From Escherichia phage AV101: a stretch of DNA of 64,000 nucleotides. The stretch is taken from sequence record OQ973471.1; one strand, 5' to 3'. Of the stretch, positions 61,839-64,000 are shown piece by piece. Both the position numbers and the translations under genes were made by a program. The notes under the pieces were generated by a model. It saw only the letters and a list, made by a program, of their open reading frames with translations. It did not search any database and was not told the DNA's origin. How positions within the stretch are numbered: position 1 is the first letter of the stretch; the number at the start of each line of letters is the position of its first letter.

Positions 61839-62345
61839 TTATAGAGTAACAAGTGATACGGTAAAAACCATCGTCCCGTCTGTTGCCATTTTTCTTGAAA
61901 CTGGTATGACGCGAGGCTGGCAGAATATCCATTCTTTCTCCATGGACGCCAAGTCCAGCATATCCATTTCTGATTCATCGCCTTTGTTCACAAATTTTTC
62001 TAGAGAACCATAGACATTAAGCCCCTCCGGGAGTCTGTTTCGATGTTTGTAACAAATGCGGGCAACAGCTTTGGTTCCGTACGATTTAGAAAATTTTTTG
62101 GCCACATGCTTCAGTTCACTGAAGCTAAGACAAGAGTCCCATGTCTGGAACATGTCGCCTCGTTCAAACATTATCTCTAAACGCGCAACGTCCTCTTTAG
62201 GCAACCCACGATAAAGTGTGGTCGTCTGTGGTTCGCGCAATTCTTGCACCAGATCGCGGACGGCAGGGGAAACAGTACCGGGGCGCATGATGTGGGACTT
62301 ATCATGGACGAGGTAAAATAAATCTTGAATTTGTTGATCGGTCAT
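61839..62345 (-). CDS. candidate mono-ADP-ribosyltransferase (R-S-E type), tentative
   Basis: Spaced TLYRG (Arg), SCLSFS (S-x-S) and DESEMD (E-x-E) in order and spacing reminiscent of T4 Alt/Mod-type ARTs. Confidence 0.3.
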   Translation of the reverse strand: MTDQQIQDLFYLVHDKSHIMRPGTVSPAVRDLVQELREPQTTTLYRGLPKEDVARLEIMFERGDMFQTWDSCLSFSELKHVAKKFSKSYGTKAVARICYKHRNRLPEGLNVYGSLEKFVNKGDESEMDMLDLASMEKEWIFCQPRVIPVSRKMATDGTMVFTVSLVTL

Positions 62346-62392
62346 GGTATAGTTCCTGCATTTCAAATAGACGGGGTAATCATACCCCGCCC
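62346..62392 (-). repeat. cassette variant copy
   Basis: GACGGGGTAATCATACCCCGCC hairpin + TATTTGAAATGCAGGAACTATACC-ATG. Confidence 0.6.
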
Positions 62393-62404: not shown

Positions 62405-62644
62405 TTAACTGATGTGCTTCAGAAGAGCGAAGAGGATCGCGGCCTTGGCCTTTACCTTTCCCACGATGCCTGTCTCGACATCAACTTCTTCAGCAACCCA
62501 CTCTTTTCCCTTCTTGCTGATGATAACGTCACGGCGCTGTGCGTAGACTTCTTTGGTCGCATACACACGGCGGAACCCTTTAGCGCGGAGCAATCCCCAA
62601 TTGCGATCAATTTCTACTGAGGTTTCTACCATTTTGTTCTTCAT
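62405..62644 (-). CDS. hypothetical protein
   Basis: 79 aa. Confidence 0.4.
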   Translation of the reverse strand: MKNKMVETSVEIDRNWGLLRAKGFRRVYATKEVYAQRRDVIISKKGKEWVAEEVDVETGIVGKVKAKAAILFALLKHIS

Positions 62645-62766
62645 GTTATAATCTTACCTTTCAACCCGGTGAACCCATCGTTCGCCAGTTATTGAATAAT
62701 AGGACATTCCTTAGAGGAAGTAAACCCCTAAAAGTAAAAATCCCCAACGTTTGTTGGGGACTTCTG

Positions 62767-63090
62767 TTATTTGCGCAGGGCAACCACGAGTTCAGAGAGT
62801 TCACCCATGGTCGGGTCATCGCCTTTACTACCTAGCCACCCGTCGTCGATTTCGACCTGAAACTCTTCTTCGAGGTCCATTACAATTTCGATAGCGTCCA
62901 GTTCATCACCGCCGAGGTCTTTCTTGGTACGGAGGCCAGCCAGCTTGTCCAGGGCGTCCTCGTTCTGAGATGCCACGTCGTCCAGCAATTTGCGCTTGTC
63001 ATCGTCACGCCACAGATCCATATTCAGATTGTCGGTGGCGTACTGAGCCAGATGACGCATGACTTCAACATATGTTGGTTTACTGCTCAT
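62767..63090 (-). CDS. acyl-carrier-protein-like protein with Glu replacing the phosphopantetheine-attachment Ser
   Basis: KDLGGDELDAIEIVMDLEEEFQVEIDD aligns to ACP [27 protein letters not shown]; GGAG RBS. Confidence 0.55.
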   Translation of the reverse strand: MSSKPTYVEVMRHLAQYATDNLNMDLWRDDDKRKLLDDVASQNEDALDKLAGLRTKKDLGGDELDAIEIVMDLEEEFQVEIDDGWLGSKGDDPTMGELSELVVALRK

Positions 63091-63132
63091 GCTACTTCTC
63101 CCAAAGAAAGGCGGGTTGCCCCGCCCGTTGGA

Positions 63133-64000
63133 TTAGATTTTGATTTCTTTCTCTGTCAGTTCGGCAGTGACCTTGTACTTCACGCCATCCACTTCAACTT
63201 CCATGGTGGACTCTTCCAGGTCGAGGTCGGTGAACCAGCCGTGGCCAGCAACGATACCATACACCACTTTAGACAGTGTCTTGTTCAGGGCACGGACTTC
63301 GGTGATGGCCGCCTTGGCAGCAGCGTCGATCCAGTTTTCGATCAGCTGTTTCTGTAAGGCTTCAGGCACGGCAGTGATCATAGGAGACTTCACGAATGCT
63401 TCGTACTCTTTCAGAGCATTGGCGATGAACAAGTCACCAGCATTGAGTTTCTTGTTCTCGGCAATCTTCTTCTGTACCGCTGCGATAGACGGTAGAGATG
63501 AAGCGCCAGCGATCTTCACGTTCAGCTCACGGCTCATGTAGAAGTCGGTAGACTCTTTGGTCTCAGTCTTCGGTGAGAAGCCGTAATCGCGGATGCCGTA
63601 GGAGGACAGGAACTCGGCCGCCTCAGCGCCGTACTGTACTGCCAGGCCTTTGGCGTTACCCTTACCAACCAGGGCGTCTCGATAGAACTTCAGCACCTTC
63701 TGCTTGCCTTTCAGGGCTTCCAGACGGACATTATCCGCAAAGAACTGAGCAGCACTGATGTTCTTGACCATGGCGCGGTTGACCAGCGGTACGCTTTCCA
63801 GGTTCAGGACAAACACTTCCGGACCACCAAACACGTGGACGCCCATTTCGATCAGCTTTTGTACAACTTCGATATCAGCCTTGAACGGCAGAGTCTTCAC
63901 GTTAATGATACCGTCTTTGACGATGGTGTAGTTGCGCCACTGGAAGGTGTCCAGTTCTTCAGGTAGACCAAACTTCTTCTGTGCGAATTCAGGCACAGCC
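63133..64000 (-). CDS. hypothetical protein, N-terminus outside window
   Basis: Frame open to window edge; track's apparent start is GTG at 63996. Confidence 0.45.
   Translation of the reverse strand, partial: AVPEFAQKKFGLPEELDTFQWRNYTIVKDGIINVKTLPFKADIEVVQKLIEMGVHVFGGPEVFVLNLESVPLVNRAMVKNISAAQFFADNVRLEALKGKQKVLKFYRDALVGKGNAKGLAVQYGAEAAEFLSSYGIRDYGFSPKTETKESTDFYMSRELNVKIAGASSLPSIAAVQKKIAENKKLNAGDLFIANALKEYEAFVKSPMITAVPEALQKQLIENWIDAAAKAAITEVRALNKTLSKVVYGIVAGHGWFTDLDLEESTMEVEVDGVKYKVTAELTEKEIKI

Follow-up and report, generated by a model that had tools for sequence, protein, structure and literature searches.

What does a phage gene encode when its product has the fold of an acyl carrier protein (ACP) and lacks the serine to which the phosphopantetheine (Ppant) arm is attached? 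The question is raised by an open reading frame (ORF) at 62767..63090 on the minus strand of a 64,000-nucleotide stretch of Escherichia phage AV101 (OQ973471.1), referred to below as the window, which shares 97% identity with Escherichia phages vB_EcoM-ZQ1, A221 and LHE287 and with Enterobacter phage fGh-Ecl02 (Ackermannviridae, Aglimvirinae/Agtrevirus type). The ORF is real, with its ATG start codon at 63090. Databases and genome papers label the gene "acyl carrier protein", an annotation that is contradicted by the missing serine. The analysis described here identifies the product as a real, conserved and selected pseudo-ACP, that is, a non-carrier protein with the ACP fold, whose mechanism of action we infer. 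The parts of the protein on which the argument depends are as follows.

62767..63090, minus strand: coding sequence of the ACP-fold protein, 107 amino acids, 12.1 kDa, isoelectric point 4.2, net charge about −14
62902..62904, minus strand: Glu63 codon GAA, at the site of the Ppant-attachment serine (Ser36 of AcpP), from the sequence and alignments
62860..62907, minus strand: helix II or "recognition helix", residues 62–77, DELDAIEIVMDLEEEF, from alignment A2
62800..62844, minus strand: remodelled helix III and loop, residues 83–97, DGWLGSKGDDPTMGE, from alignments
63010..63090, minus strand: N-terminal extension, residues 1–27, outside the ACP fold; residues 7–21 are predicted to be helical

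The ACP fold was supported by profile, sequence and structure comparisons. PF00550 (PP-binding) was matched at 23.8 bits, above its gathering cut-off of 20.8, and PHROG 4154 ("acyl carrier protein") was matched along its whole length (E = 1.1e-56, protein residues 1–107 against profile positions 1–108 of 108). The score for PF14573 (PP-binding_2), at 25.6 bits, fell below the family cut-off of 32, and the NCBIfam equivalog TIGR00517 (acyl_carrier) was matched over residues 54–83 only, at 33.6 bits against a cut-off of 70.45. A phmmer search of all PDB sequences returned acyl carrier proteins exclusively (best E = 2e-5), with Glu63 aligned to the serine of the DSL motif. The four-helix-bundle ACP fold was recovered, and the AlphaFold2 (AF2) model had a predicted local distance difference test score (pLDDT) of 79. 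Both statements of the initial annotation that bear on identity, namely that the protein is ACP-like and that the DSL serine is replaced by glutamate, were thus borne out.

Identity to E. coli AcpP amounted to 17 of the 26 residues in the segment D31–D56. ACP helix I is present and the ACP alignments start near residue 30, so the additional N-terminal piece is ~27 amino acids long; the 50 residues first assigned to it were an overestimate. Compared with the ACP of bacterial type II fatty-acid synthesis (E. coli AcpP, PF00550), the phage protein has Glu or Asp in place of the Ppant serine, adds the N-terminal helix of ~27 amino acids and, in the helix III region, an insertion of 3 residues with a conserved Trp, and lies far below the equivalog cut-off (33.6 versus 70.45 bits), with neither a phosphopantetheinyl transferase (PPTase) nor acyl enzymes found in the phage regions searched. 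Members of the same orthologous group (PHROG 4154) include the proteins of Salmonella phage ViI (UniProt E1XTD1), CBA120 (orf142) and Sajous1 (gp186). The ViI protein showed no structural difference from the AV101 protein (Foldseek TM-score 0.86), and the ViI and other Kuttervirus copies have Asp (DDL) instead of Glu. One peptide of the Sajous1 homologue has been detected by proteomics (PMC10892097).

The attachment position was then compared across the family. Glu or Asp was present in all 19 database homologues of alignment A2, in all 26 distinct gene copies taken from loci, in the distant full-length relatives P0032–P0037 and P0040, and in the versions from Erwinia phage Bue1 and Serratia phage KNP4. 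Kuttervirus-type phages (ViI, CBA120) carry DDL and the others DEL, and the acidic residue is kept across genera at only ~30% identity. Neither Ser, Ala, Gly, Thr nor Asn was seen at this position in the homologues examined, and no (D/H)S(L/I) motif stands at the N terminus of helix II, the residue there being Glu63. The median pairwise dN/dS (the ratio of nonsynonymous to synonymous substitution rates) was 0.19. The consistent absence of these residues points to selection for a negative charge rather than to simple loss, and the lack of the serine is a selected feature of the whole family. Taken alone, a lost catalytic residue would also fit a decaying remnant of a former phage ACP with no present function. 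That explanation is contradicted by the selection analysis (median dN/dS 0.19), by a reading frame that is intact in every genome examined and by the restriction of the substitution to Glu or Asp across genera at such low identity, and we regard it as barely credible.

A different objection is that the protein could be a genuine carrier that uses a non-canonical residue or enzyme, serving a phage pathway such as thymidine hypermodification. The database annotation "acyl carrier protein", a 5-hydroxymethyldeoxyuridine (5-hmdU) DNA kinase gene ~6 kb away and the conservation of Thr94, within the DDPT motif, in most members would all agree with such a role. However, no member has a serine at or near the attachment site, and Thr94 and DDPT are missing from the Erwinia and Serratia phage versions, so that no nucleophile is universally conserved: a Ser, Thr or Cys common to the whole family was not found. 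To our knowledge, all known PPTases modify a serine at the N terminus of helix II. No AcpS-like transferase was found in any Ackermannviridae record by tblastn with E. coli AcpS (E ≤ 1), a search in which no Sfp-type query was used. Acyl-handling enzymes (adenylating enzymes, ketosynthases or acyltransferases) were likewise absent from the 26-kb annotated neighbourhoods of two related phages, which contain replication, recombination, lysis and DNA-modification genes. Since there is no serine at the site, no universal Ser, Thr or Cys, no AcpS-like match and no acyl enzyme in the flanks, we conclude with high confidence that the ACP-like protein is not a carrier; use as a carrier through some other residue or enzyme is highly improbable. 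The same observations lend good support to the earlier proposal that the canonical site of the protein cannot receive phosphopantetheine. The kinase gene is located as follows.

L001:19516-20739, minus strand: 5-hmdU DNA kinase gene (PF18723, 8e-82), ~6 kb past the window end in related phages

The annotator of one record calls the kinase an aGPT-pyrophosphorylase, and a MazG-like gene accompanies it. The thymidine-hypermodification cluster of Ackermannviridae is close to the ACP-like gene and its von Willebrand factor A (vWA) neighbour, described below; no link between the cluster and this pair was found.

By tblastn, the protein was matched in 270 phage records at 35–99% identity, apparently all of them Ackermannviridae, with genomes of ~150–160 kb and mainly phages of Salmonella, Klebsiella, Escherichia and Dickeya; the ACP-like gene is a near-core gene of this family. 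Erwinia phages vB_EamM-Bue1 and phiEa2809 have a divergent 99-amino acid DEL-type ACP-like ORF directly after the vWA gene, and this ORF is missing from the GenBank and RefSeq annotation. A shorter version was located in Serratia phage KNP4.

L028:5310-5609 (MG973030.1 84601-84897), plus strand: ACP-like ORF of Erwinia phage Bue1
L035:2995-3267: ACP-like ORF of Serratia phage KNP4, 90 amino acids

Metagenomic relatives were 29–47% identical. Short DEL ACP-like proteins (86–98 amino acids) with a DDPT/DDK-type motif were also found on metagenomic phage-like contigs (L031:7079-7375, L026:1825-2085 and L025:936-1223); their best PHROG match is 5934, they lack the N-terminal extension, and no vWA neighbour is in view. 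These findings suggest that serine-less acidic ACP-like proteins exist in further uncultured phage lineages. Among the best 150 profile matches in 1.8 billion representative proteins, a list biased by the query profile, D[ED]L variants recurred sporadically and mostly as singletons (Streptomyces hainanensis, several tandem pseudo-ACP repeats). Five metagenomic proteins (P0046, P0066, P0090, P0094 and P0139) contain two to three tandem ACP-like domains in which the attachment serine is replaced by P, T, F, G, E or D, and look like pseudo-ACP repeat proteins.

Helix II is the recognition helix, through which partner proteins bind real ACPs. In the 19 sequences of alignment A2, its residues D62, L64, D65, I67, E68, E74 and E76 are invariant, and M71, E75 and F/Y77 are nearly so. 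In most members the helix III region is longer by a 3-residue insertion than that of AcpP and contains the conserved residues W85, G87, D91, D92, P93 and T94; the versions from Erwinia and Serratia phages lack this remodelled segment (residues 83–97). Conserved residues of the N-terminal extension are Y7, V10, M11, L14, Y17, A18, N21 and L22, and all of these except N21 form a conserved hydrophobic face on the predicted N-terminal helix.

With its serine permanently replaced, the phage protein cannot be loaded and most probably acts by protein-protein binding. The preservation of helix II, together with a carboxylate where holo-ACP has its phosphodiester, suggests docking on an ACP-recognizing surface, and a pseudo-ACP that acts by binding such a surface is the reading we prefer, at about an even chance of being correct. 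The protein would dock through helix II and a fixed negative charge at the position of the Ppant phosphate. Its docking target would be a protein that normally recognizes ACP, with a host ACP client as the leading candidate, which it may occupy or modulate during infection while not itself being consumed by lipid metabolism. We infer, accordingly in conditional terms, that helix II could be the binding surface, that the carboxylate could mimic the Ppant phosphate and that the target could be a host protein. The related DEL proteins on other phage-like contigs with no vWA gene in view point to independence from neighbouring genes. Given binding to an ACP-recognizing surface, the chances for and against a host target are roughly balanced.

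ACP ranks among the most connected proteins of the bacterial cell: the synthesis of fatty acids, phospholipids, lipid A, lipoate and biotin depends on it, and it binds MukB, SpoT and IscS. Published work on ACP partners bears on what an unmodified ACP can do. Apo-ACP is described as inhibiting PlsB, the glycerol-3-phosphate acyltransferase, more strongly than holo-ACP does (PMC3896788). Apo- and holo-AcpP are equally effective in stimulating the MukB ATPase (PMC8602292), and MukB R839 is in contact with the Ppant phosphate in the structure of MukBEF (PMC8669397). In the eukaryotic ACP–Isd11 complex an arginine also contacts the Ppant phosphate (PMC8547962). SpoT, one of the partners named in the initial annotation, is by contrast reported not to bind apo-ACP (PMC3896788, PMC8602292). 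Overall, the published data make a host target plausible. The idea put forward at the outset, a decoy that interferes with host ACP partners, is plausible as well, being compatible with the conservation of helix II and with the published apo-ACP facts.

Two known systems offer a comparison. The closest functional precedent is the Ppant-independent mitochondrial ACP of Plasmodium. In P. falciparum the attachment serine of this protein is replaced by Phe and the protein functions purely by binding Isd11, and the authors found no serine-less ACPs outside Apicomplexa and Vitrella (PMC8547962). As in the apicomplexan proteins, the ACP fold of the phage protein has been retained under selection without the attachment serine (phage dN/dS 0.19). 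The apicomplexan protein works as a protein-binding subunit in which the replacement residue is part of the interface (PMC8547962). The replacement there is hydrophobic (Phe, or Cys or Gly in Toxoplasma), whereas in the phage family it is strictly acidic; the apicomplexan partner is the LYR protein Isd11, whereas no such partner, for which no search was made, is known for the phage protein in phage or host, and the setting is a phage. The second comparison is with overproduced apo-ACP in E. coli, which inhibits growth through PlsB (as summarized in PMC3896788). There an unmodified ACP inhibits an ACP-dependent enzyme, and this is the nearest known functional analogue of what an unmodifiable phage ACP might do, although the effect is one of artificial over-expression of the host's own protein.

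A more specific form of the pseudo-ACP proposal is that the protein is a "phosphomimetic" pseudo-holo-ACP, in which the Glu or Asp carboxylate replaces the Ppant phosphate and the protein locks onto a host ACP-dependent machine during infection, both in Ackermannviridae and in some uncultured phages with DEL proteins. We hold this form tentatively, as distinctly less probable than its converse. The machine might be PlsB and phospholipid synthesis, the lipid A acyltransferases or the AcpP site of MukBEF, candidates that are advanced with similar reserve.

Several points weigh against the preferred reading. Helix III, which is part of many ACP-partner interfaces, is remodelled in most members, which is odd for a faithful mimic, and the conservation of helix II could be due in part to fold stability. 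The confidence of the AF2 model is moderate (pLDDT 79). The PPTase search was made by tblastn with one query, and a remote PPTase homologue would escape it. Finally, the B. subtilis and Plasmodium ACPs score slightly above E. coli AcpP by phmmer. The similarity is generic rather than host-specific; host-specific mimicry was considered as a candidate and is unsupported, as the ACPs of other bacteria are no more distant from the phage protein than E. coli AcpP is.

The gene lies close to the end of the window, and the partner most obviously suggested by its position is the product of the gene upstream. The elements around the gene are as follows.

63133..63996, minus strand: vWA protein with a metal ion-dependent adhesion site (MIDAS), ~733 amino acids, phrog_2426; C-terminal 287 amino acids of this upstream neighbour, the N-terminal part lying beyond the window end
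L001:13190-15331, minus strand: full-length vWA gene in a related phage
63109..63126, minus strand: GC-rich hairpin of 7 bp (6 G-C pairs) followed by TTCTTT, between the vWA stop and the ACP-like start
63096..63102, minus strand: Shine-Dalgarno-like GGGAGAA, 5 nucleotides 5′ of the ATG, read from the sequence
62728..62760, minus strand: 8-bp hairpin, TCCCCAAC..GTTGGGGA, followed on the minus strand by TTTTTACTTTT, just past the ACP-like stop codon

The stem of the hairpin at 62728..62760 came from a scan, which reported it on the plus strand, and its minus-strand T-run was read from the sequence; hairpin and T-run together look like an intrinsic terminator. The hairpin at 63109..63126 looks like a terminator or an attenuator. 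The ACP-like gene is thus bracketed by two GC-rich hairpins, of which the downstream one has a good T-run. The position of the upstream hairpin, between the vWA stop codon and the ribosome-binding site of the ACP-like gene, points to attenuation, or to each of the two genes being regulated separately.

The vWA domain is N-terminal in its protein, and the MIDAS motif (D24xS26xS28, T97, D127) did not vary among 22 diverse homologues. A MIDAS requires an acidic residue from its ligand, as in the binding of ligands by integrin I-domains, which makes the Glu or Asp of the ACP-like protein an attractive candidate. The ACP-like protein could, on this basis, serve another phage protein as its dedicated partner or subunit, the adjacent vWA protein being the obvious choice, with the exposed Glu or Asp at the tip of helix II completing the MIDAS. 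Full conservation of the MIDAS site and adjacency of the genes across Ackermannviridae are consistent with such a complex. The adjacency may, however, be mere conserved synteny within one phage family. By tblastn the vWA protein was matched in 503 phage records; these come from large myoviruses that are unrelated to one another (Ackermannviridae, Slopekvirus, pf16, Bacillus AR9/PBS1 and Rhizobium phages). The ACP-like gene was matched only in Ackermannviridae, so that the two genes do not always occur together. At all three non-Ackermannviridae loci inspected (Miro, pf16 and AR9) there was no adjoining ACP-like gene, and the sole ACP of pf16 lies ~100 kb away and keeps its serine. DEL-type ACP-like proteins are also encoded on other phage contigs where no vWA gene is in view; in Serratia phage KNP4 the two genes stand three ORFs apart, and in the window the terminator-like hairpin lies between them. 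Because it is widespread without an ACP-like gene, the vWA protein is a weaker candidate partner, and we consider this explanation unlikely.

Other observations were made on the vWA protein. Its PHROG family is labelled "unknown function"; the protein is annotated variously as "tail protein", "minor tail protein" and "virulence", and just one peptide of it was found in a virion proteome. Its AF2 model (pLDDT 84.8) shows an N-terminal vWA domain and a beta-sandwich that resemble 4fx5, ITIH and ArnB, and the C-terminal ~450 amino acids have no clear match. A "carrier domain protein" of pf16, obtained as a Foldseek match, was considered as a second serine-less case linked to a vWA gene and was rejected, since it retains DSL and lies far from the vWA gene.

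The composition and setting of the gene bear on one further alternative, in which the protein is a generic, highly acidic decoy (a mimic of DNA or another nucleic acid, or an anti-defence protein), the ACP fold being a mere scaffold and the recognition surface irrelevant. With a net charge of about −14 and an isoelectric point of 4.2 the protein is acidic enough for this role; the corresponding charge of E. coli AcpP is −15. The gene is small, lies in an early/middle region and is surrounded by genes for host takeover; two genes downstream there is an Alt-like match to "RNA polymerase ADP-ribosylase". Its PHROG category is "moron, auxiliary metabolic gene and host takeover". A PADLOC scan gave no matches. 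We judge the generic decoy to be decidedly improbable.

Two genes follow the ACP-like gene in this region. At 62405..62644 on the minus strand lies a gene for a 79-amino acid protein (phrog_804, unknown function), which is kept just 3′ of the ACP-like gene in Agtrevirus-type phages; Erwinia phage Bue1 has an unaligned 79-amino acid ORF at the equivalent position (L028:5708-5947). The next gene, at 61839..62366 on the minus strand, encodes 175 amino acids and matches PHROG 832 ("RNA polymerase ADP-ribosylase") over profile positions 1265–1425 of 1480 only, in the C-terminal part. Its product is annotated as RNA polymerase ADP-ribosylase in relatives.

The literature on phage ACPs, on mimics of ACP, on anti-defence and on the transcriptomics of Ackermannviridae was searched. 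Apart from the single-peptide entry in a proteomics table, no trace of the protein was found there, and no paper remarking on its lack of the serine or proposing a function for it. Ackermannviridae (ViI, CBA120 and Limestone-like phages) are widely used as candidates for biocontrol and therapy, and in their genomes the gene wrongly bears the name of an acyl carrier protein or of an auxiliary metabolic gene, a label worth correcting. The strict requirement for Glu or Asp offers a clean experimental handle. Should the vWA/MIDAS protein prove to be the target, the ACP-like protein would be the first ligand for a vWA family present in more than 500 phage genomes. Should the phosphomimetic form of the proposal hold, viral ACP mimics would have their first example, and so would serine-less ACPs reported outside Apicomplexa and Vitrella. 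If the pseudo-ACP does act by binding an ACP-recognizing surface, an unloadable copy of the recognition helix would constitute a compact natural probe or inhibitor of an ACP interaction, and a new type of host-takeover factor.
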